Shown in pieces: positions 19,696 through 41,962 of a DNA stretch of 64,000 bases. The notes below the pieces were generated by a model. It searched no databases. It saw nothing but the letters and a program-made list of their open reading frames with translations, and was not told the DNA's origin. Position numbers and translations under genes: made by a program. The first letter of the stretch is position 1, and every line of letters begins with the position of its first letter. This stretch comes from Candidatus Eiseniibacteriota bacterium (GTDB taxonomy: Bacteria > Joyebacterota > Joyebacteria > Joyebacterales > Joyebacteraceae). The stretch lies in assembly GCA_043819135.1 (NCBI GenBank), contig JBDRFG010000106.1, positions 809-64,808 of the forward strand. The letters run 5' to 3'.

Positions 19696-19769
19696 TGGGG
19701 CGTCGTCAAGTGGCAAGACACGGGACTTTGGATCCCGCCTCGGAGGTTCGAATCCTCCCGCCCCAGCCA
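19696..19769 (+). tRNA. tRNA-Gln (anticodon TTG), CCA encoded
   Basis: Hand-folded cloverleaf. Acceptor stem TGGGGCG/CGCCCCA, discriminator G and an encoded CCA. D-stem GTC/GAC. Anticodon stem CGGGA/TCCCG with loop CTTTGGA. T-arm GGAGG-TTCGAAT-CCTCC. The ends resemble E. coli tRNA-Gln (TGGGG...CCCCAGCCA). Confidence 0.85.
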
Positions 19770-29269: not shown

Positions 29270-30520
29270 CTAGCGGTACATGGCCTTGATGCTGCCCCAG
29301 CTCTGCGCCTCGACCGGCGAACCGGTCCAGTCCTCGAGCCAGGTGTCGTCAAGCATGACGCCGGCGCCACCAGCGGCACCCGGACCGCAACCGTTGTCGG
29401 TCGAGTAGAACGTGATCTTGTACCGGAACGCCGTTCCCGGCAGCAGCGGGCTGATGTCGTAACCGACGATTCCGCTCGTGCCCCATCCGTCGCACTGGCC
29501 GAAGTCGCCCCAGAACGCCGCGGTCATGGTCCAGCTGCCGCCACCGTCCACGCTGACTTCCTCTGTCCAGTAGTCGTTGTCGACCGTCGGCACCTCGGCG
29601 TGAATAAGCATGCGAAGCGTGCACGTGACGCTTCCGACGATGCTCACGGCGGGGGAGATCAACGAGTTGTTGAGATTCGGAGGCGTCAGGGACGTGTCGG
29701 CGGCGTCGCCGCACCACCAGCTGTGCGGGTCGCTGTAGGCGATACACGCACGATCGATGATGTGCCACCAGTCGCCGGCCGAAGACGGGATGCCGGAGAC
29801 GCAGAGGCCGCCGCTCTCGCCGTCATCGTAGAAGTACACGTAGCCGCCGAAGTAGTCGAACACCTTCACGTTGTCGCACATGAAACCGCCACCGACCGAC
29901 AGATAGTGGCCGTCCTGATCCGACCAGCCGCCGTCCGACAGGAAGCGGAAGCGGGCGTTGAGCGGATTGTCGTACGCATCCAGGATGAAGCCGTAGAGAC
30001 CGATGTCGGTCCACGGCTGCTTGCCGTCGTAGCCCTTGTTCAGGTTCACGTAGACGCCGAGGCTCTCGGCCTGAACGTACGTGTAGTCGTAGCCGGCCTC
30101 CGAGTCGTGACGGAACGCGTAGGTCAGGATCGGGTACGTGGCACCGGTCAGGTCCACCGTCGGGATGACCAGCCTGTCATCCCAGCTGTTGCCGTAACCA
30201 CCGTCCGCGTCATAGTCGAAATTACCGCACCACCAGGACTGTCCGCGCCCTCTGCTCGCGGGCGGCTCGTAGGCCATGTAGGTGTCCAGATGGAAGTGGG
30301 GAACCGAGGTGGCGGTGTTGTCTTCATGCGTCCAACCGGCGACGCCGCCCTCCATGTCATCGAAATACAGGATGACGGGGCTGCGCGACGCGTACGCGTC
30401 GATCTGATCGGTGTAGCTGGCAACGGTCTTCCGCGCGGTCGCGGTCGTGGCAAGTGCAAACACCGCGGCGACGACCATCATCACACAAAGCGTTCTCTTA
30501 AGCATCGTTTCGAACTCCAT
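29270..30520 (-). CDS. secreted hypothetical protein with internally duplicated Trp/Tyr/Asp/Gly-rich domain
   Basis: This is the only substantial minus-strand gene. It has a signal peptide (MLKRTLCVMMVVAAVFALATTATA; an alternative start is at 30505). Two roughly 150-aa repeats each begin S-W-W-C-G (SWWCGNFDYDADGG... and SWWCGDAADTS...). I see no catalytic motif. Confidence 0.6.
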   Translation of the reverse strand: MEFETMLKRTLCVMMVVAAVFALATTATARKTVASYTDQIDAYASRSPVILYFDDMEGGVAGWTHEDNTATSVPHFHLDTYMAYEPPASRGRGQSWWCGNFDYDADGGYGNSWDDRLVIPTVDLTGATYPILTYAFRHDSEAGYDYTYVQAESLGVYVNLNKGYDGKQPWTDIGLYGFILDAYDNPLNARFRFLSDGGWSDQDGHYLSVGGGFMCDNVKVFDYFGGYVYFYDDGESGGLCVSGIPSSAGDWWHIIDRACIAYSDPHSWWCGDAADTSLTPPNLNNSLISPAVSIVGSVTCTLRMLIHAEVPTVDNDYWTEEVSVDGGGSWTMTAAFWGDFGQCDGWGTSGIVGYDISPLLPGTAFRYKITFYSTDNGCGPGAAGGAGVMLDDTWLEDWTGSPVEAQSWGSIKAMYR

Positions 30521-31049: not shown

Positions 31050-32462
31050 ATGACCGACAAGAGAAGACTGAGCGCGATACCGTCCGTCGATGCAGTGCTG
31101 GCTCATCTCGAGGAGAGAAGCCTCAGCACAGTACAGCCTACGCCCATACTGACCCGTCTCGTCAGGGAGATACTCGAACGCGAGCGCGCGGCAATGCTCG
31201 CCGGCGAGGGGCACCACGGGGACACCCCCGAGGACACACGCGCCGGTATCCTCAGGAAGGTGGAGGCGGAGGTCCTGCGCTCGCCTGCCCGCGGTCTCGT
31301 GCCTGTCATCAACGCCACCGGCGTGGTCGTTCACACCAATTTGGGAAGAGCGCCGCTCTCTGAAGAGGCCGTGGCGGCGGTTGCGGAGATTGCGCGAGGG
31401 TACTCGAATCTGGAGTACGACCTGATCAGGGGCACTCGCGGGAAGAGGGACTACCTTGTCAGGGACGCGCTGTGCGAGCTGACCGGCGCCGAGGACGCTC
31501 TCGTGGTGAACAACAACGCGGCGGCCGTCCTCCTGGTTCTGAACACTCTCGCCGCCGGTCGCGAGGTCGTCGTATCGCGAAGCGAACTGATAGAGATCGG
31601 CGGCTCGTTCAGGCTTCCGGACGTGTTCGAGCGCAGCGGCTCGCGCATGGTCGAGGTCGGAACGACGAACCGCACACACCTGTCGGATTTCCGGGACGCC
31701 ATCAGGAGCAGCACAGGGGCGCTCATGTCAGCGCACTGGAGCAACTACTCGATCTCGGGATTCGTCGAGCGCGTTTCGTTGAGCAAACTCGCCTCACTGG
31801 GAGAGCGCTTCGGCATTCCCGTTATCCATGACCTTGGAAGCGGCATCCTCATCGATCCCGCGAAGCTCGGGCTTTCCGGAGAGATGACGGTGGCTGAGAG
31901 CGTCTCCGCCGGAGCGACCGTCTCGACCTTCAGCGGCGACAAGATCCTCGGAGGCCCGCAGGCCGGCATCGCGGTGGGCACGGAGAGCGCCATCTCGCGC
32001 ATGAGGGCGAATCCCCTGATGCGAGCGCTTCGCCCGGGCAAGCTGACTCTGGCCGCCCTGTCGGCGACGCTCGCAAGCTACCTTCGCGGCGACGCAGAGA
32101 CGTCGGTCCCCGTGTTGTCAACGATCCTGGCGCCTCTCGATTCGCTTGCCGGAAGGGCCGAGCGAATGGCCAAGTCGCTGTCGTTGGCGCTGGGCGAGGG
32201 GGCGCGGGTATCGGCGCGTGAACTGGAAGGGCGCGTGGGCGGAGGCGCCGCTCCGGAGATAGTCATACCCAGCAGCGGGATCGAGATAGAGCCGCGCGGG
32301 AGCGTCACCGCGGGATCGGTTACGGCCGCGATGCTCGCGGCGTCACCGGCCGTCGTCGCGCGCACACAGGACGACCGCATAATCGTTGACTTGAGAACCG
32401 TCCCTGAAGACCAGGACAGCGCGGTCGTCGAGGCCCTGATCCACGCGTTCGGGGAGAGGTAA
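31050..32462 (+). CDS. selA: L-seryl-tRNA(Sec) selenium transferase
   Basis: INATGVVVHTNLGRAPL, the PLP region GGSFRLP and FSGDKILGGPQAGI with the PLP lysine are present. The protein is about 470 aa. Confidence 0.85.
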   Translation: MTDKRRLSAIPSVDAVLAHLEERSLSTVQPTPILTRLVREILERERAAMLAGEGHHGDTPEDTRAGILRKVEAEVLRSPARGLVPVINATGVVVHTNLGRAPLSEEAVAAVAEIARGYSNLEYDLIRGTRGKRDYLVRDALCELTGAEDALVVNNNAAAVLLVLNTLAAGREVVVSRSELIEIGGSFRLPDVFERSGSRMVEVGTTNRTHLSDFRDAIRSSTGALMSAHWSNYSISGFVERVSLSKLASLGERFGIPVIHDLGSGILIDPAKLGLSGEMTVAESVSAGATVSTFSGDKILGGPQAGIAVGTESAISRMRANPLMRALRPGKLTLAALSATLASYLRGDAETSVPVLSTILAPLDSLAGRAERMAKSLSLALGEGARVSARELEGRVGGGAAPEIVIPSSGIEIEPRGSVTAGSVTAAMLAASPAVVARTQDDRIIVDLRTVPEDQDSAVVEALIHAFGER

Positions 32463-32464
32463 CA

Positions 32465-34003
32465 GTGGAATACACATCCGTGTCGGGAGCGACCACACAG
32501 CAGTTCGAACACCTTCGCGAGTCCGGAGTGCTCTCCGAGGGGGTGACCCTGGAGCGTTCCGGCATCGCGCGGTCACCCGTGCTCGTGCGACCGGTCGTGG
32601 GAGACGCCCTCGACGGCTGGATGCCTAGGATCGAACAATCCATCGGCGTCGTGAAGGGCGTTGTCGCTTTTTCGGGATCCGACATGGCGGAGACCGCCCA
32701 GATCGCGGCGGCCGCGGCCGCGTGGCTCGGCGACCGAGGAAGAACCGTAGTTCTTGTGGACGCGTCCGTCGAGCGCCCCGTTCTCGGGAAGCCTCTTCCA
32801 GAGGACGGGGACGAGGGTCTGGTGGACGCGGTCCTGTTCGGCGTGTCACCTCCGGCGGTCGTCAGACGTACGCTCTCGTCCGGGGTCCGTGTGGTCACGA
32901 CGGGATCACATCCGCTTTCGGTCGATCGCGTGTTCGAGGGCGGTGAACTCTCCGGTGTCCTCAGGGGACTTGCGGAGGAGGCCCTCGTTCTCGTTCTCGT
33001 GCCTCCCGCCAACCTCGCGATGACGTCCGAAGCGCTCGACGCCGTCATCTGCATCGCCGGGAGCGTGGCCGAAGTCGAATCTCTCGCATCGTGCATAGAG
33101 GGCGTCAGGACGACGGGGGTCCACGTCCGCGATCAGGTCGAGAAGGTCGCCGACACCGAGCGGGCCGGCGAGCCATCTGAACTTCCGCCAATCGTCCTGC
33201 CGGCGCGCGAGCGGCCCGGCGAGCCGGTGGACGCGGAGGCGCAGGCGGGGGAGCTGACGCCGACGCGCCCGGAGCTGATGCACGGCGAGGGCGGAGACGA
33301 ACCCGACGACACCGAGGAGCCACGGCATACGCCCATTGTGCTCGGCGCGTCGTCGCCCCCTCGAACGCGGCCTGACCATCTGGCCTCCACGGTGGCGGTC
33401 GCAGTTATACTCGTGATAGCGACGGTTCTATGGTGGTACATGGACGGACAGCGGAGGTTCTACTCCGCTCCCGACGGACCCGCCTATACGGGACAGGAGC
33501 AAGTGACCGAAAGCGGGGACTCGGAGCCCGACGGGGGCGGTCCACCAGCTTCAACTGAGACGGGCGAGGAAACGACGGGACAGGACGGAGCGAGCGACGA
33601 GGCACCAGGCGTCGAGGGGGAAGGACCGACCGACGGTCGACCCTCAGCTGCCGTGGAGCCCGGGGAGTCGGGCGATGAGGGCGGCGCAACTGCCGCCGCC
33701 GTTCCTCAGGCGGGCGAGCGTCCCGACGGAGCCCCGCTGATAAGCGGGCCCGGCGGGTCGTACAGGATCATGGTCAGCTCACACCACCGCGAATCGGCGG
33801 CGGAAGTTGAGGTAGCCGAACTCAGCGAACGGGGCGTCGTGGCCGAAGTGATGGCAGCGGAGGTAGCGGACAGAGGAACCTGGTTTCGCGTGCTGGTGTC
33901 CGGCGGATACCCGACGCTCGCGAGCGCCAGCGCGGTCCTTGACACAATCAAGAGTTTCGGGTATGAAGGTGCCTGGGTAGGGCGCGCACCACAAAGCGAA
34001 TAG
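32465..34003 (+). CDS. SPOR-domain cell-division protein with degenerate ParA/MinD-like N-terminal domain
   Basis: The N-terminal ~200 aa have a ParA/MinD-like layout but lack the P-loop (VVAFSGSDMAETAQIAAAAAAWLGDRGRTVVLVDAS in place of KGGVGKT). One TM helix follows (LASTVAVAVILVIATVLWWY). Then comes an acidic Gly/Glu/Pro-rich linker and a C-terminal SPOR domain (YRIMVSS...TWFRVLVSGGYPTLASASAVLDTIKSFGYEGAWV). Confidence 0.6.
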   Translation: MEYTSVSGATTQQFEHLRESGVLSEGVTLERSGIARSPVLVRPVVGDALDGWMPRIEQSIGVVKGVVAFSGSDMAETAQIAAAAAAWLGDRGRTVVLVDASVERPVLGKPLPEDGDEGLVDAVLFGVSPPAVVRRTLSSGVRVVTTGSHPLSVDRVFEGGELSGVLRGLAEEALVLVLVPPANLAMTSEALDAVICIAGSVAEVESLASCIEGVRTTGVHVRDQVEKVADTERAGEPSELPPIVLPARERPGEPVDAEAQAGELTPTRPELMHGEGGDEPDDTEEPRHTPIVLGASSPPRTRPDHLASTVAVAVILVIATVLWWYMDGQRRFYSAPDGPAYTGQEQVTESGDSEPDGGGPPASTETGEETTGQDGASDEAPGVEGEGPTDGRPSAAVEPGESGDEGGATAAAVPQAGERPDGAPLISGPGGSYRIMVSSHHRESAAEVEVAELSERGVVAEVMAAEVADRGTWFRVLVSGGYPTLASASAVLDTIKSFGYEGAWVGRAPQSE

Positions 34004-34019: not shown

Positions 34020-37000
34020 GTGTACCTCAAGCAGCTGGACATCTTCGGGTTCAAGTCATTCGCGCACAAACTTGATCTGGAGTTCGGCCCGGGCATGACC
34101 TGCGTCGTCGGACCGAACGGGTGCGGGAAGACAAACGTTGCTGACGCCATCAGGTGGGTCCTCGGCGAGCAGAGCGCCGCGGAACTGCGCGGCGCCAACA
34201 TGGCCGACGTCATCTTCAACGGCACCAAGCAGCGTCGCCGCCTCGGCATGGCCGAAGTGGCCCTGACCATCGACAACTCCGCGGGCTACCTGCCGACCGA
34301 TTACACCGAGGTGGTCATCGGACGTCGCGTCTTCAGGTCCGGCGAGAGTGAGTATCTTCTCAATAAGACGCCGTGTCGCCTCAGGGACATCAACGACCTG
34401 TTCCTGGACACCGGAGTCGGCACGCGGACCTATTCGCTCATCGAGCGAAAGATGGTCGATTCTATCCTCTCGGATTCCACCGGCCACCGCCGCTTCATGT
34501 TCGAGGAAGCGGCAGGCATCATGAAGTACAAGATCCGGAAGAGGTCCGCCCTCAACAAGCTCGAGGCGACCGCGACGGACATGCAGCGCGTGTCCGACAT
34601 TATCAGCGAGGTTGAGAAGCAGGTGCGATCGCTCAAGCGGCAGCTCGCGCAGGCCAGGCGGCATCGGCGCTACACGGACGAACTCAGGGAACTCGACATC
34701 GCGCTGGGTCGGAGGGAGTACGCCGAGTGGCAGACACGCAAGGACGAGTCGGCCGGACGGATCTCCGAGCTGCGGCGGTCGATAGGCGAGTGCGACGACG
34801 TGTTGTCCAGCTCCGAGCGCGAGGGCATGGGCATCCGAACAGAACGTCACGACAAGGAAGAGGCGCTCGGGAGCCTCGAGATCGAGATCGCTGAACTCGA
34901 CGCGCGTGCGCGCTCCCTCGCGGACGGTCTGCTCGTGGGAACGGAGAGGCGCAACGCATCCGAGCGCCGTGTCGCCGAGTTGGACACCGAACTCACGGAC
35001 ATCCGCGCCAACCTGTCTCTCGCCCTCGCCAGGGCGGCAAGGCTCGAAGACCGGATCAAGGAAGCCGCTTCGCGAGCGGAGGAGCGCGACGGCGAGCTGT
35101 CATCGATGACCGAGGGCCTCGCGGAGGTCGAAAAGGAACATCACAGGCTCAAGGAACTCCTCGACGGCGATAAGCAGACGCGGCTAGCCGGGCTCGAGAG
35201 CTCCGCGGGACTCAAGGGCGAGCTCGAAAGCTACCGAACGCGCCTGGACGACCTGATGGAGGAACACGTTGTTCTCGAGGCCGAACTTAGCGAGAACAGG
35301 GCGACACTCGCCGACAAGGAAGAGCACATTCTCACCGGCCTCGAGTCCGAGAAGAGACTGCGCGGAGCCGCGCACGACGCCGGCGCCGCGCACAAGCAGG
35401 CAACAGCGTCCCTGGACGGCGGAAGGGAAAATCTGCTGAGCGCGCGCGAGCGGAAGACGAAGCTAGAGGGCGAGCTCGACGCCGCGGAGCACAAGAGACA
35501 ACTGCTCTTCGAGATCAGGGACGGCTACGGCGGTTTCCAGGACGGGGTCCGCTCGCTCCTTTCGGAGGAAGCTGGCTCGGTCGCCGGTCTTATCGGGACC
35601 GTTGCTGACGTTCTTGCGATCGACCAGGGTATGGACGGGGCCATCGAGACCGCGCTTGGAGGGGCGGTGCAGTACGTCGTCACGCGTGACGTGGAGTCTG
35701 CACGCAGCGCCATGGGGCACCTCTCGAGGGGCTCCCTCGGCAAGGCGACGTTCATCCCGGTTTCGGAGCTTGCCGGCGTTCGGACCGAGCGCCCGCCCGA
35801 CGGCGTGCTTTCCTCGGATGGAGTCGTCGGCCCGGCGTCAGACTTCGTCAGGTGTGACGCCTCGCTCGGACTGCTGCCGCAGTTCCTGCTGGAGGGCGTC
35901 GTGATCGTGCGCGATCTCGACACGGCCCTGACCCTCAGAACGCGCGACGACGCGCGCGACCTCGCTTTCGTCACTCCGGCGGGTGACATGGTCACGGCGG
36001 CGGGCGTGATGTCCGGTGGTCGTCCAGGGAATGAAGAGGCCGGTCTCCTGCGACGCGCCGAGCGCCTTGATGCGGCTGAGCGCGCCGTCGCGGAACTCGC
36101 GAAGCGTCTGACCGAGGCCAGACAGAACGAGGAGAAGGCCGAGTCGGAGCTCGCGGCCGCGTCGGAGGCGGCGGAGAAGTCAGAGGCGGCGGCCGAATGG
36201 GCCGAGGCGCAGCTGTGGGACGCCAAGCGGGAGCTGGCCGAACTCGAGCTGGGGAAGACGAACCTCTCGGGCGGCGTATCGCGGCTTGCCGCCAACAGGG
36301 ACGCCCTGGGCGTGAGAATGGAGTCCACGCGGCGGGACCTCACCGCGCTCGCGAATCGTCTGTCCCAGCTGTCCAAGGGTGAGGACGAACTGGGAGAGAA
36401 GCTGGGCGAACTCGAGAGGAACTTCAGGGTAGCCGAGAGGAAGCGGGCCAAGGTCACCGAAGAGGAGAAGCAGGCCGAGATCGGGGCCGCGGCCGCAAGG
36501 GTGGAGGTCACTCAGCTCAAGGGTGAGCACGCGCAGCTCGGGGAGAGCGTTCGGACGGCCAGAAGCTCGATCGAGAAGAAGACGGAGGAGCGCGAGCAGC
36601 ACCTTCGCACCGTCGCGGAACTGGACACGCGTAACGGGGCCGACGGAGAGGTCCTGTCCGGTCTGAACACTGAGAAGAGCGCGCTCGAGCGCGACAGAGA
36701 CAAAATGCGCGATGCGGTCAGAGAGCTTCGGACGCACATAGAGAAACTGGACGGCGACACCAGGACGTCCCGAGAGGCCAGAGACAAGGCGCAGTCCGCA
36801 CTGCACGAGATCGAGCTGCGTAACACCGAGCTCAGGAGTCGGTTCGAGGCTCTTCGCGAGAGGCTTCGCGAGGAATACTCCGCCGACGTTCAGGAGCTGG
36901 GCGACCTTCGAAGCGAGGAAGGGGAACCTCACTTCGACGCGCCGAAGGCCAAGGAGGAGATCGAGCGGCTCAAGGCTCGCCTGCGCGCCATGGGCCCTGT

Positions 37001-37631
37001 CAACCTTCTGGCCCTCGACGAGTATGACGAAGAGAGCAAGCGTCTCGAGTTTCTCACGGGGCAGTATGACGACCTGGAGAAATCCAAGGAGTCGCTGAAG
37101 GCCGCCATCGACAAGATCAACGGCACGGCGAGGGACATGTTCCTCGAGACGTTCGAGCTGGTCAGACAGAACTTCATCACCATGTTCCAGAGGCTGTTCG
37201 AGGGCGGCGACGCCGATCTGAGACTGGCCGATCCGAACGATCCCCTCGATTCCGCGATCGAGATAGTGGCCTCGCCCAGAGAGAAGAAGCTCGGCCGTCT
37301 CTCACTGCTCTCGGGCGGAGAGAGGGCGCTGACGGCCATCGCGTTGCTGTTCGCGATCTATCTCGTCAAGCCTTCTCCTTTCTGCATCCTCGACGAGGTC
37401 GACGCGCCGCTCGACGACGCGAACGTTCAGCGGTTCGTCCGGATGCTGAAGGAGTTCTCGGCGCGGACGCAGTTCATCATCATCACGCACAACAAGGCAA
37501 CCATGAAGGAGGCCGACCGGCTCTACGGCATCACCATGGAAGAGTCGGGCGTATCAAAGGTCGTCTCGGTCAGTCTCGACGCCGCACGGGAAGAGGTGGG
37601 GAGTGAGGAAGCGGTTCTCGAGGCTGCGTGA
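34020..37631 (+). CDS. smc: chromosome segregation protein SMC
   Basis: The protein is 1203 aa. The N-terminal Walker A is GPNGCGKTNV. Long coiled coils flank a hinge. The C-terminus has the ABC signature LSGGERALTAIALLFA and the Walker B motif FCILDEVDAPLD. Confidence 0.95.
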   Translation: MYLKQLDIFGFKSFAHKLDLEFGPGMTCVVGPNGCGKTNVADAIRWVLGEQSAAELRGANMADVIFNGTKQRRRLGMAEVALTIDNSAGYLPTDYTEVVIGRRVFRSGESEYLLNKTPCRLRDINDLFLDTGVGTRTYSLIERKMVDSILSDSTGHRRFMFEEAAGIMKYKIRKRSALNKLEATATDMQRVSDIISEVEKQVRSLKRQLAQARRHRRYTDELRELDIALGRREYAEWQTRKDESAGRISELRRSIGECDDVLSSSEREGMGIRTERHDKEEALGSLEIEIAELDARARSLADGLLVGTERRNASERRVAELDTELTDIRANLSLALARAARLEDRIKEAASRAEERDGELSSMTEGLAEVEKEHHRLKELLDGDKQTRLAGLESSAGLKGELESYRTRLDDLMEEHVVLEAELSENRATLADKEEHILTGLESEKRLRGAAHDAGAAHKQATASLDGGRENLLSARERKTKLEGELDAAEHKRQLLFEIRDGYGGFQDGVRSLLSEEAGSVAGLIGTVADVLAIDQGMDGAIETALGGAVQYVVTRDVESARSAMGHLSRGSLGKATFIPVSELAGVRTERPPDGVLSSDGVVGPASDFVRCDASLGLLPQFLLEGVVIVRDLDTALTLRTRDDARDLAFVTPAGDMVTAAGVMSGGRPGNEEAGLLRRAERLDAAERAVAELAKRLTEARQNEEKAESELAAASEAAEKSEAAAEWAEAQLWDAKRELAELELGKTNLSGGVSRLAANRDALGVRMESTRRDLTALANRLSQLSKGEDELGEKLGELERNFRVAERKRAKVTEEEKQAEIGAAAARVEVTQLKGEHAQLGESVRTARSSIEKKTEEREQHLRTVAELDTRNGADGEVLSGLNTEKSALERDRDKMRDAVRELRTHIEKLDGDTRTSREARDKAQSALHEIELRNTELRSRFEALRERLREEYSADVQELGDLRSEEGEPHFDAPKAKEEIERLKARLRAMGPVNLLALDEYDEESKRLEFLTGQYDDLEKSKESLKAAIDKINGTARDMFLETFELVRQNFITMFQRLFEGGDADLRLADPNDPLDSAIEIVASPREKKLGRLSLLSGGERALTAIALLFAIYLVKPSPFCILDEVDAPLDDANVQRFVRMLKEFSARTQFIIITHNKATMKEADRLYGITMEESGVSKVVSVSLDAAREEVGSEEAVLEAA

Positions 37632-38544
37632 TGGCCTGGCCAAGACCAGACGTGCGATCACGGAGGGCATCAGGGTAGCTCTGGGCAGGGGCGCCGGCGT
37701 CGACAGCGCGGCGCTGGAGTCCATAGAAGAGACTCTGATCGCCGCCGACCTGGGCGTCGAGACGGCCCTTCATCTAGTAGACGTCCTCGGGCAGCGTTTC
37801 AGCGCGGGCGGCGGATCGGAATCCGAGGTCAGAGAATTCCTCGCGCTCGAGATCGAGACAATGCTCCGCGCGGCAGAGAAGGAGGGCGTCCAGGGAGAAC
37901 CCGGGGCGCCTCTTGTTGTTATGGTCGCGGGGGTTAACGGCGTCGGTAAGACGACCACGATAGGCAAGCTCTCGAAACTCCACATCGACGACGGGCGCAA
38001 GGTGATCCTCGCGGCGGGCGACACGTTCAGGGCCGCTGCGACCGAGCAGCTCTCCATCTGGGCGGAGCGAAGCGGGGCGCAGTTCGTTGGCGGACAGCTC
38101 GGGGGTGATGCGGCCGCCGTGGCCTTCGACGCGCTCGATGCGGCGATCGCCCGTTCCGCGGACGTGCTCATAGTCGACACGGCGGGGCGTCTCCACACTC
38201 AGAAAAATCTGATGCAGGAACTCGAGAAGGTCAGACGCGTGTTGGGCAGGCGACTCGCCGGCGCGCCGCACGAGGTCCTGCTGGTGATCGACGCGAACAC
38301 GGGACAGAACGCCCTGTCACAGGCGAGGATTTTCGACGAGATGCTGGGCCTGACGGGTCTCGTGCTGACGAAGCTGGACGGCACGGCGCGCGGCGGCATC
38401 GTGGTCGCGATAGCGAAGGAACTGGCGGTGCCGGTCGTGTATGTCGGCACGGGAGAGGCCATCGACGACATCGAGCCCTTCGACGCCTCGGCGTTCGCGA
38501 GAGGGCTTCTGGGGGTCGAGGAAGAGGGTCCCGAGGCAGCTTGA
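37603..38544 (+). CDS. ftsY: signal recognition particle receptor FtsY (NG domains only, no acidic A-domain)
   Basis: The SRP GTPase G1 motif GVNGVGKTTTIGKL, DTFRAAA, DTAGR and TKLDGTARGG are present. The gene overlaps the smc 3' end by 29 nt. Confidence 0.85.
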   Translation: MRKRFSRLRDGLAKTRRAITEGIRVALGRGAGVDSAALESIEETLIAADLGVETALHLVDVLGQRFSAGGGSESEVREFLALEIETMLRAAEKEGVQGEPGAPLVVMVAGVNGVGKTTTIGKLSKLHIDDGRKVILAAGDTFRAAATEQLSIWAERSGAQFVGGQLGGDAAAVAFDALDAAIARSADVLIVDTAGRLHTQKNLMQELEKVRRVLGRRLAGAPHEVLLVIDANTGQNALSQARIFDEMLGLTGLVLTKLDGTARGGIVVAIAKELAVPVVYVGTGEAIDDIEPFDASAFARGLLGVEEEGPEAA

Positions 38545-38743: not shown

Positions 38744-38777
38744 GCGCCCCGAGGGATGTACGGGGCGCTTTTCTGTT
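38744..38777 (+). terminator. intrinsic terminator (riboswitch expression platform)
   Basis: GCGCCCCG-agggatgta-CGGGGCGC forms the stem-loop and is followed by TTTTCTGTT. It lies between the aptamer and the ribD Shine-Dalgarno/GTG start. Confidence 0.75.
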
Positions 38778-38845
38778 GCCCCGCCTGCGGCCGCACCCGG
38801 CACGGCAACGCGCGGGAACGACATCACCCCGGGAGGAACAGAGGC

Positions 38846-40024
38846 GTGAGCACTATCGCCGGAAGCCCGAAGAAGGCCTTCGACGTGCTGGATTCCGCCT
38901 TCATGGAGCGCGCGTTCGAACTCGCGAGGCGCGGCCGCGGGGCGACCAGCCCGAATCCGGTCGTCGGCGCCGTGATCGTCAAGGACGGCGAGGTCGTGGG
39001 AGCGGGCTATCACGAACGGTACGGAGGCCCTCATGCCGAGGTCAACGCCATCGCCGAGGCTGGCGAGAAGACGTCCGGCGCGACGCTCTACGTGACGCTC
39101 GAACCATGTTGTATCTCGGGTAACACGCCGCCCTGCACCAACGCGGTAATCGCGGCCGGCATCAGTAGGGTCGTGGTTCCCATCGAGGATCCGAACCCGA
39201 AGGTCTCGGGACGCGGTCTGTCCATCTTGCGAGAGGCGGGCGTCGAGGTGGACTTCGGCCTGATGCGCGACGCGGCGCGGACCCTGAACGCGCCTTACTT
39301 CAAGTTCCGACGAACCGCACTGCCGTTCACGACGCTTAAGCTTGCGCTCTCGCTGGACGGACGGATCGCGCCGCCCACGGGCGGCCCCCGCTGGACCTCG
39401 TCGCGCGCGTCGCGCGCGCTGGTCCACTCGATGCGGGCAGAGGCCGACTGCGTAATGGTCGGTGTCGGAACGGTGCTTGCTGACGACCCGCGGTTGACGG
39501 CCAGGAGGGTGGACGACGCGGGACCGGGCGCCGGCGATGTCCGACAGCCCGTTCGGCTGGTCCTGGACACCCACCTGCGCGTTCCCCTGGATTCGGAGGT
39601 GGTCACGGGCGCACGCGAGGTCAGAACCATCGTGGCCGGCGGCGAGAACGCGAGCGGTTCGGCGGCCGGCGCTCTCGAGGAGAAAGGCGTCGAGATCTGG
39701 CGGTGCAAGGAATCCGACGGGACGCTCGACCTTCGCGACGTGCTCAAGCGCGCCGCCTCTGATGGACTCATCTCGGTCCTCGCCGAGGGGGGCGCCACGG
39801 TGGCGACTTCGCTCTTGTCAGATGGGCTGGTGGACCGCGTGGCCTTCTTCGTGGCGCCCAGGCTCTACGGCGCGGCCGGGCTGCCCGCGCTGGCTTCGCT
39901 CGACGAGCGCTGGTGGGGCGGGGGCTCGAGGTTTGTCGGCGGAAGGTGGACGGAGATCGGCGGGGACTGCTTGTTCGAGGCCGATGTGCTCACGGCGGAC
40001 CCTGAAGCCGCAGAGGAGGAGTGA
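38846..40024 (+). CDS. ribD: bifunctional diaminohydroxyphosphoribosylaminopyrimidine deaminase / 5-amino-6-(5-phosphoribosylamino)uracil reductase
   Basis: The deaminase zinc motifs HAEVNA and PCC...PPC are present, followed by a C-terminal reductase domain. I start it at the GTG at 38846, which has GGGAGGAACAGAGGC upstream. The track ORF starting at 38756 would overlap the terminator. Confidence 0.8.
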   Translation: MSTIAGSPKKAFDVLDSAFMERAFELARRGRGATSPNPVVGAVIVKDGEVVGAGYHERYGGPHAEVNAIAEAGEKTSGATLYVTLEPCCISGNTPPCTNAVIAAGISRVVVPIEDPNPKVSGRGLSILREAGVEVDFGLMRDAARTLNAPYFKFRRTALPFTTLKLALSLDGRIAPPTGGPRWTSSRASRALVHSMRAEADCVMVGVGTVLADDPRLTARRVDDAGPGAGDVRQPVRLVLDTHLRVPLDSEVVTGAREVRTIVAGGENASGSAAGALEEKGVEIWRCKESDGTLDLRDVLKRAASDGLISVLAEGGATVATSLLSDGLVDRVAFFVAPRLYGAAGLPALASLDERWWGGGSRFVGGRWTEIGGDCLFEADVLTADPEAAEEE

Positions 40025-40702: not shown

Positions 40703-41962
40703 ATGAAACAAGATGTCGAGAGGGTGGAGGCCGCGATAGAGGAAGTCCGGCAGGGCAGGATGGTCATCGTGGTTGATGACGAGACCAGGGAGAACGAGGG
40801 AGACCTGATCATGGCCGCGGAGAAGGTGACACCGGCGGCGATCAACTTCATCTCCCGTGAGGGGAGGGGGCTCATCTGCGTTCCGATGACCGGCGCGCGA
40901 CTTGATGAACTGGACCTCCATCCGATGGTCGGGAAGAACACGTCGATCATGGGCACGGCCTTCGCCGTGTCCGTCGACGCCGTCCGAGGTACGACGACCG
41001 GCATCTCGGCGCACGACCGGGCCACCACCATCAAGGCTCTGGTCGACTCGAACACCCGGCCGTCCGACCTCGGGAGGCCCGGTCACGTATTCCCACTGAG
41101 GGCAAGCGAGGGCGGCGTGCTGAAGCGGGCGGGCCACACGGAGGCTGCCGTGGACCTCTCCAGACTCGCCGGTCTCATGCCCGCCGGGGTCCTCTGTGAA
41201 ATCATGGGTGAGGACGGGAGCATGGCGAGGATGCCTGAGCTCGAGCAGATGGCGAAACGTTTCGACATGCGCATAGTGAGCGTCCGCTCGCTGATAGAGT
41301 ACCGCCAGTCGACGGAGAGACTGGTGCGCGCCGTGGCTCGAACGGTTCTGCCAACGAGGTACGGTGAGTTCGATCTCACGCTGTACGAGAGCGACCTCGA
41401 CGACAACCCCCACCTGGCGCTCGTCAAGGGGAACCCCGGACCGGACAAGGACGTGCTGGTCCGAGTCCATTCGGAGTGTCTGACGGGCGACGTGTTCGGC
41501 TCGGCGAGATGCGATTGCGGAGACCAGCTGGGACATGCGCTCATGGCAATAGAGCGTGAGGGCGAAGGCGTCTTCCTCTACATGCGCCAGGAAGGTAGAG
41601 GCATAGGCCTCCGCAACAAGATCAAGGCATACGAACTTCAGGACCGCGGCAGGGACACGGTGGAGGCCAACGAGGAGCTGGGCTTCGACGCCGACCTTCG
41701 CGACTACGGCATCGGGGCGCAGATCCTAGCGGACCTGGGGGTCCGCCGCATCAGGCTCTTGACAAACAACCCGAAGAAGGTGGTCGGCCTCGAGGGCTAC
41801 GGCCTGACCATCGTGGAAAGAGTAGGGATAGAGATAGAACCCAACGAGAAGAACAGAAGGTATCTGACGACCAAGAGGGAGAAACTGGGGCACTTACTGG
41901 AGTTTGAGAGCTGTGCAGTAGGCGAGAACGGGTGCGGCTCCGATGCGGAGCACGACGACTAG
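40703..41962 (+). CDS. ribBA: bifunctional 3,4-dihydroxy-2-butanone-4-phosphate synthase / GTP cyclohydrolase II
   Basis: The DHBP synthase domain has RENEGDL. The GTP cyclohydrolase II domain has the zinc ligands CxxGxxxxSxRCDC ([16 protein letters not shown]). Confidence 0.9.

Follow-up and report, generated by a model that had tools for sequence, protein, structure and literature searches.

A predicted membrane protein with a BY-pseudokinase-like domain and a SPOR domain is encoded next to smc in uncultured bacteria

To our knowledge, the coordination of chromosome segregation with septum closure is known in only a few model species, each of which employs lineage-specific adaptors. A locus in a 64,000-nucleotide (nt) stretch of contig JBDRFG010000106.1 from a Candidatus Eiseniibacteriota bacterium (hereafter the window, in whose coordinates all positions are given) raises the question of what role is played by a protein that combines a SPOR domain with a P-loop-less cytoplasmic domain and is encoded directly upstream of smc. 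The open reading frame (ORF) in question, 32465-34003, is given the working name X. The reading preferred here, which draws on sequence comparison and on analogy and which we hold to be about evenly poised between right and wrong, is that X is a septum-anchored bacterial tyrosine (BY) pseudokinase that would serve as a scaffold working with the SMC system. The X family would then be a simple candidate for an envelope-spanning adaptor: outside the membrane a domain that reads peptidoglycan, inside it a dead kinase put to new use, and in the genome a pairing with smc that is conserved and, in one clade, translationally coupled. Bacterial tyrosine pseudokinases, still a young concept, would no longer be confined to polysaccharide export, and a testable function could be offered for a protein conserved in the sampled Eisenbacteria-labelled genomes as well as in one or more other uncultured lineages.

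The N-terminal domain of X (N-domain) is not covered by any curated family in Pfam or NCBIfam. There is no Pfam match in the N-terminal 400 amino acids (aa) of X, nor one in the N-domain even at E<=1, and NCBIfam yields a weak match of X to the XrtA-associated tyrosine autokinase model. The affinity of the domain becomes clearer in more sensitive comparisons: phmmer retrieves BceF from the PDB with the window protein alone (E 0.0024), and a profile of 60 X family sequences (A2) retrieves BceF (8.9e-14), CapB (6.7e-11) and then Wzc, Etk and VpsO (about 1e-3); chains of ParA/MinD are absent from the matches of this profile at E<0.01. Among 17 diverse members of the family, 16 are matched by NCBIfam tyrosine-autokinase models (best E 3e-15, all these matches being far below the curated, trusted cut-offs), 2-3 by NCBIfam MinD models and 3 by Pfam CbiA.

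Structural comparison points in the same direction. The AlphaFold2 (AF2) model of the N-domain, which was built from the 60 family sequences only, has a predicted local distance difference test (pLDDT) value of 95.2 and a predicted template modelling (pTM) score of 0.92, and the top 50 matches to this model in a Foldseek search of the PDB are all BY-kinases, with template modelling (TM) scores of up to 0.73 (Wzc 3la6, E 1.8e-10, TM 0.73). This model replaced a first, poorer one that had been made from 8 sequences (pLDDT 66) and for which MinD appears at rank 43 (TM 0.41), with NifH and CooC also far down the list. The blocks GL(S/V)..L and T...L.V..aG..P are common to the N-domain and the BY-kinases. 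Judging by profiles and the model, the N-domain is BY-kinase-like, its nearest relatives in both sequence and structure being the active enzymes Wzc, Etk, CapB, BceF and VpsO. The kinship with ParA and MinD is at the superfamily level only: a SIMIBI-class fold is shared, whereas the KGGxxGK[ST] motif is missing in X and neither the sequence nor the structure of ParA/MinD is the nearest. Membership in ParA/MinD proper is excluded by the PDB profile, Foldseek and NCBIfam matches, all of which favour BY-kinases. The preliminary description, made from the sequence alone, had taken the N-domain for a ParA/MinD-like pseudo-ATPase and proposed a comparison of its predicted structure with MinD and ParA; the likeness survives as common membership in a superfamily, and the label 'MinD-like pseudo-ATPase' has to be replaced with that of a BY-pseudokinase, a kind of protein already described for EcpK (PMC12004946).

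The catalytic apparatus of BY-kinases has been erased almost completely from the X family. When X is aligned to solved BY-kinases, SGSDMAETAQ (aa 70-79) occupies the position of the P-loop, which bears out the earlier suggestion that this motif had been replaced. In the profile alignment, the P-loop of BceF, TGPTPGIgKS, stands opposite the family consensus t-s-e-d-p-r-l-.-A-A, with a one-residue deletion. GK[ST] at this position is found in none of the 60 aligned members and in none of the 117 SPOR-bearing sequences. The latter come from an hmmalign alignment of 155 sequences (154 retrieved homologues and the window protein), in which SPOR is present in 117, always without a P-loop, and no sequence has both; 4 have a P-loop and no SPOR, and these also carry DxDxR and DxPP, that is, they are true BY-kinases. 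Of Walker A', only D99 (58/60) and P105 (59/60) are conserved, the position of the second Asp being filled by Ser, Cys or Asp and that of the Arg being variable. At the position of the Walker B Asp (179), the same 60 sequences have Leu in 34 cases, Val in 13, Gly in 6 and other residues in the rest, with the Pro retained; for comparison, the true BY-kinases found alongside have VIIVDADLRRP as Walker A' and VVILDTPPV as Walker B. The ExxRxxR motif of ring oligomerisation (ESLRSLR in BceF) is opposite d-w-l-a-e-l-e, so that both Arg are gone, although the alignment is less certain in this N-terminal part. The C-terminal Tyr cluster is absent as well, with 0 Tyr in aa 226-305 of X. With the Walker A Lys/Ser, the Walker B Asp and the Tyr tail among the losses, canonical binding and hydrolysis of ATP as well as autophosphorylation are predicted to be absent, and an active kinase is ruled out.

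By sequence and model, the N-domain thus appears to be a pseudokinase of the EcpK type, a BY-kinase fold without Walker motifs or a Tyr tail. EcpK of Myxococcus xanthus has this fold without Walker A, A' or B or a Tyr-rich tail; it is proposed to work by contacting other proteins, as a scaffold, and not by phosphorylating them (PMC12004946). The likeness, which is to EcpK as described, has its limits: EcpK, whose gene belongs to an exopolysaccharide (EPS) cluster, is soluble, stands alone and has the co-polymerase EpsV as its partner, whereas X is fused through a transmembrane helix to a periplasmic SPOR domain, is encoded outside polysaccharide clusters and is paired with smc.

Despite the loss of all catalytic motifs, the N-domain is under purifying selection and is not decaying. 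In comparisons with five orthologues, the ratio of nonsynonymous to synonymous substitution rates (dN/dS) is 0.20-0.29 for the N-domain and 0.16-0.28 for SPOR; the values for the linkers, 0.25-0.83 for the cytoplasmic and 0.38-0.72 for the periplasmic one, are mostly above those of the N-domain. Conservation culminates in a family signature, EDGDEGLVDAVLFGVS, of the form E117-G118-L-V-D121-x-x-x-F-G126-x-S128, in which two residues, G118 and D121, never vary and four others, E117, V120, G126 and S128, each occur in at least 57/60 sequences; the signature persists in the most distant clade as EGIVDAFLYGAS. A second block follows, with G147 invariant and R134, S148 and P150 each in at least 55/60. 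The signature aligns to the 'GLS' segment of BY-kinases, and the second block to the 'T..nL.vl.aG..PPNP' segment of BceF and CapB.

The remainder of X connects this domain to the cell wall. The cytoplasmic linker (aa 226-296) contains 18 D/E, 6 K/R and 0 Tyr and varies greatly in length and sequence across the family. X has one strong hydrophobic helix (aa 306-324, mean Kyte-Doolittle value 2.35), and a hydropathy scan finds one transmembrane helix in every full-length member of the family. In nearly all members, this helix is preceded by a patch rich in R/K, from which an N-in/C-out topology is predicted. The periplasmic linker (aa 325-425; 22 D/E, 20 Gly, 12 Pro) is poorly conserved. The C-terminal SPOR domain that had been recognised from the sequence alone is confirmed by Pfam (PF05036, aa 430-501, E 6.8e-8, 33.2 bits against a cut-off of 21). 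X is, by this predicted topology, a bitopic inner-membrane protein with SPOR in the periplasm; the single helix and the periplasmic linker are as first described, except that acidic linkers flank the membrane on both sides and not on the periplasmic side only.

A semi-conserved hydrophobic motif, (I/V)V(L/V/M)(T/G)A(S/A), is present in the clade of the window some 10-15 residues N-terminal to the basic patch and the helix (33320-33379, aa 286-305, in the window), and in one subclade SPF(L/I/V)xE is found further upstream of it. In the capsule system, CapA is a juxtamembrane activator of CapB. By analogy, the juxtamembrane hydrophobic motifs of X may act as peptides to which the kinase-like domain docks.

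The most telling property of the X family, apart from its architecture, is its genomic context. In the window, selA, X, smc and ftsY are separated by gaps of at most 16 nt (Table 1), a tight packing that is consistent with a single operon. According to the ORF listing of the window, X starts with GTG, two bases beyond the selA stop codon (32460-32462), and its start residues (MEY/MEF) also begin the orthologues. The gene order in Eisenbacteria is ArsB-like transporter, a 416-aa unknown protein on the opposite strand (both seen in the loci with the upstream flank recovered), selA, X, smc, ftsY, ribD, and in the 15 complete GTDB loci the end of X either reaches the smc start or precedes it by no more than about 45 nt. 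The arrangement selA-X-smc(-ftsY) is retained in two loci (L023 and L025) in which SMC is about 37-38% identical to that of the window. In L025, the X gene between selA and smc is of a giant variety, and ftsY is located about 0.8 kb past smc, after a short opposite-strand gene.

In clade B, neither selA nor ftsY adjoins the pair. In the loci with recovered flanks, the upstream side consists of rpsF-rpsR-DUF2232-rplI-rsfS (L028, L029) or of a gene for another SPOR protein (L027, L030), and smc is followed by a gene for a peptidase S8, a metallo-beta-lactamase-fold protein or DAHP synthase. Nevertheless, X is immediately 5' of smc in all four of these loci, with a 4-nt overlap. A metagenome scan with a clade-B profile produced 33 loci, 27 of which extend past the X stop codon; the smc start overlaps this stop (ATGA) in 25 of the 27, which amounts to 25/25 true clade-B loci, the two non-overlapping loci matching the SPOR part of the query only and probably encoding other SPOR proteins. 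With the exception of these two matches, X and smc are adjacent in every related locus with enough sequence. Because the pair is kept while the other flanks differ between clades, X-smc appears to be a conserved unit, with selA and ftsY as clade-specific company. Judging by gene order, the pairing spans at least two deeply diverged clades and is translationally coupled in clade B. The location next to smc and ftsY that had been pointed out at the outset is real in the window, where both adjoin X; across the family, the tie to smc is far tighter, and ftsY, like selA, is specific to a clade.

Table 1. Positions of gene X, its parts and conserved segments, and the adjoining genes in the window
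Feature	Positions	Strand	Size or evidence
selA, upstream neighbour of X	31050..32462	+	Pfam SelA, E 5e-131
GGGGAGAGG, Shine-Dalgarno-like, inside the selA 3' end, before the X GTG	32451..32459	+	read from sequence
X, whole gene: BY-pseudokinase domain, linker, transmembrane helix, linker, SPOR (predicted)	32465..34003	+	512 aa
BY-kinase-fold domain, predicted cytoplasmic and catalytically dead, aa 1-225	32465..33139	+	AF2 model, Foldseek, PDB profile, dN/dS
Degenerate P-loop position, aa 66-80, VVAFSGSDMAETAQI, without GK[ST]	32660..32704	+	column counts n=60; hmmalign n=155
Walker A' remnant, aa 95-105, VVLVDASVERP	32747..32779	+	column counts n=60
Family signature EDGDEGLVDAVLFGVS, aa 113-128	32801..32848	+	column counts n=60
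Second conserved block RRTLSSGVRVVTTGSHP, aa 134-150	32864..32914	+	column counts n=60
Walker B remnant, aa 174-182, LVLVLVPPA	32984..33010	+	column counts n=60
Acidic Pro-rich linker, predicted cytoplasmic, aa 226-296, without a Tyr cluster	33140..33352	+	composition
Basic juxtamembrane patch, aa 297-305, then single transmembrane helix, aa 306-324	33353..33436	+	hydropathy scan
Gly/Glu/Pro-rich low-complexity linker, predicted periplasmic, aa 325-425	33437..33739	+	composition
SPOR domain (Pfam match aa 430-501) and stop codon	33740..34003	+	PF05036
smc, 16 nt downstream of X, with its own AAGGAGG	34020..37631	+	Pfam SMC_N, SMC_hinge
ftsY, overlapping the smc end by 29 nt (37603-37631)	37603..38544	+	Pfam SRP54, E 1e-72

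The architecture of X recurs in other genomes. A scan of GTDB species representatives yielded 18 loci, all in metagenome-assembled genomes (MAGs) labelled Candidatus Eisenbacteria, Effluviviaceae or unclassified 'bacterium', and in all 15 of those that are complete at X the gene is a single ORF of roughly 500-720 aa with SPOR at the end. The closest locus (L010, JBDRTQ01) encodes a protein whose identity to that of the window is 70% overall and 77% within the N-domain. A second group (P0056, P0063 and similar), with 24-30% identity to the N-domain of the window, includes, in the part around P0063, an NCBI member labelled Candidatus Eisenbacteria. Clade B (P0066, P0092, P0095, P0125 and others) has the N-domain and transmembrane helix as in X, followed by two tandem SPOR domains. 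An exhaustive HMMER search of 1.84 billion representatives gave 45 matches below 1e-30, mostly of 480-660 aa, and 10 out of 10 longer, distant members that had been missed by the local SPOR model proved to be SPOR-positive by Pfam. Clade B is exemplified by loci with a GC content of 65-72% (L027-L060; for example, L030 844-2433 and L028 7001-8551), and a giant variant, with a cytoplasmic linker of roughly 450 aa, is represented by P0159 (1008 aa; L025 8001-11027) and P0083 (978 aa). Full-text literature searches found no description of an architecture in which SPOR is combined with a BY-kinase, with ParA/MinD or with smc. The parts are known, namely SPOR as a septal-targeting domain and the BY-pseudokinase, and it is the fusion and the coupled pairing with smc, and likewise the absence of the P-loop across at least 117 SPOR-bearing sequences, for which no description was found; the combination thus still counts as undescribed, as first surmised, with neither a curated family nor a paper found.

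How could such a protein work? Its periplasmic SPOR domain would bind the denuded glycan strands that are produced by amidases at the septum, and X would, given this binding, be concentrated there; SPOR domains are described as targeting septal denuded glycans (PMC6895207, PMC7642682). The most likely role of the N-domain, suggested by purifying selection together with the invariant acidic motif (E117-G-L-V-D121...F-G-x-S128), would be that of a nucleotide-independent protein-binding platform, or scaffold, as proposed for EcpK. The position 5' of smc across diverged clades, along with the coupling, makes the SMC machinery (SMC, ScpAB or ParB) the most likely partner. X might then link chromosome organisation and segregation to the septal wall, either to its state or to its position; which protein is the partner, and in which direction information would flow, is conjectural. 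A 'division/segregation adaptor', as the preliminary description put it, is the function that we infer. The closest functional precedent for this role is CpsD of Streptococcus pneumoniae, a BY-kinase at the division site that resembles ParA, binds ParB and links envelope synthesis to chromosome segregation (PMC4574921). CpsD differs from X in that it is an active autokinase, is encoded in a capsule operon, is tethered to the membrane via CpsC rather than by a transmembrane helix of its own and has no SPOR domain.

A more specific version of this scheme, in which X is the membrane and wall anchor of the SMC condensin, with the dead kinase tethering SMC-ScpAB (or ParB) to septal or new-pole peptidoglycan, is unlikely to hold as it stands. 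Such a tether would be a trans-envelope device that links chromosome segregation with constriction of the septum. In model bacteria, this coupling role is filled by unrelated systems, for example MatP-ZapB, Noc/SlmA or RocS-CpsD.

Several points weigh against the view of X as a septum-anchored scaffold of the SMC system. All members of the X family stem from uncultured organisms. Adjacency of genes is no proof of physical or functional interaction, and the operon of the window's clade also includes selA and ftsY, neither of which is obviously connected with X. phmmer finds no solved homologue of the SPOR part of X in the PDB at E<1, so that the case for glycan binding depends on the Pfam match. 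The best-conserved blocks of the N-domain are in part the segments that active BY-kinases keep, so that their conservation may be partly structural, and the sequence may leave room for non-canonical nucleotide binding.

The alternative that fares best, possible although it has clearly the smaller share of our confidence, is that X is a generic divisome SPOR protein, an analogue of FtsN, DedD and DamX, whose N-domain contacts FtsA, FtsZ or peptidoglycan synthases, and that its position next to smc is a matter of operon inheritance. The layout of X is indeed that of these three Escherichia coli proteins, N-in, with a single transmembrane helix, a low-complexity periplasmic linker and a C-terminal SPOR domain, and the automatic names given to family members in IMG are 'Mrp family chromosome partitioning ATPase/cell division protein FtsN' or 'DedD'. 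DamX and DedD are reported to stimulate peptidoglycan synthases (PMC7642682), and an Amidase_3 gene is nearby in L023 and L025 (a few kb upstream in the latter). However, the cytoplasmic parts of FtsN, DedD and DamX are short or disordered, not folded P-loop-type domains, and their genes are unpaired with smc. The X-smc pair, by contrast, outlasts the change of all other neighbours and is coupled in 25/25 clade-B loci; inertia alone is hard to credit because the identity of SMC between clades is about 37-40%. Moreover, no dcw/fts division genes were seen adjoining X in any locus examined.

The neighbourhood also bears on the improbable scenario in which X is a scaffold of a polysaccharide export or co-polymerase system, as EcpK is with EpsV, and SPOR fixes an envelope-spanning machine to the peptidoglycan. 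All sequence and structural neighbours of the N-domain act in Wzx/Wzy polysaccharide pathways, and BY-pseudokinases are known as scaffolds of co-polymerases (PMC12004946). Yet X lacks a Wzz/GNVR co-polymerase domain, and its domain order is the reverse of that in Wzc, the kinase-like domain being N-terminal to the single transmembrane helix and the Wzz periplasmic domain missing. No glycosyltransferase, flippase, polymerase or Wza gene is present in the loci with listed gene content, and no kinase-less PCP-2 partner, a trait of EcpK, in the neighbourhood of the window's X or in related loci. The wider neighbourhood in the window has no polysaccharide genes; the surroundings are of the housekeeping type (H+-pyrophosphatase, YchF, a SurA-like peptidyl-prolyl isomerase, the rib operon), which rules out membership of X in a polysaccharide gene cluster.

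It is equally doubtful that the N-domain has kept an enzymatic or nucleotide-sensing function and binds ATP, ADP or another ligand via non-canonical residues, for example the E117/D121 loop and a metal. D99 and P105 are almost invariant, an invariant acidic motif is near the former active site by alignment, and many eukaryotic 'pseudokinases' are reported to bind nucleotides still (PMC4718504). Against this stand the lack of GK[ST] in 117/117 SPOR-bearing members, the one-residue deletion in the loop, the hydrophobic residues in place of the Walker B Asp and the missing Tyr acceptor tail; in comparison with active BY-kinases, X has none of the catalytic motifs, no Tyr cluster and neither arginine of ExxRxxR.

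Finally, it is highly improbable that the 512-aa ORF is an assembly or fusion artefact that joins a soluble pseudokinase to a transmembrane SPOR protein, a concern raised at the outset, since, although in the JGI metagenome contigs L002, L003 and L004 the frame is broken within the cytoplasmic linker, where gene callers consequently split X, these breaks are at three different positions, homology in the downstream frame reaches upstream of any start codon, the linker in the window is an in-frame acidic sequence resembling those of orthologues, and the fused form in 15/15 complete GTDB loci and 117/155 sequences rules out an artefact for the window.

The frame breaks (to the -1 frame) are located in L002 1621-3188, L003 538-2030 and L004 2305-3276, and may reflect errors in assembly, pseudogenes or alleles that really are split. 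L002 also contains a 27-bp tandem repeat in 7.4 copies (2294-2492) that encodes an acidic peptide repeat of the EEPGE type.

Other genes in the vicinity of X deserve mention. In clade B, a second SPOR protein is encoded directly upstream of X, with a 4-nt overlap (L027 1892-3286; L030 2-847); it has no kinase-like domain and appears to be exported, with a hydrophobic N-terminus in L027. Further upstream, L027 and L028 encode a large Tricorn/Omp85-like protein (L028 3384-6641). In the window, the ORF for the 416-aa protein (29270-30520, minus strand), located between the gene for the ArsB/CitMHS-type transporter and selA, has no Pfam match and is syntenic, at 51-88% identity, in the Eisenbacteria loci with the upstream flank recovered. 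The presence of selA implies the use of selenocysteine; no tRNA-Sec was found in the window, the sole tRNA there being tRNA-Gln at 19696-19769. Downstream of ftsY, the intergenic region before ribD contains a flavin mononucleotide (FMN) riboswitch (RF00050, 38590-38709, plus strand; 111.6 bits against a gathering score of 66.2), which precedes ribD (38756-40024) and ribBA (40703-41962).

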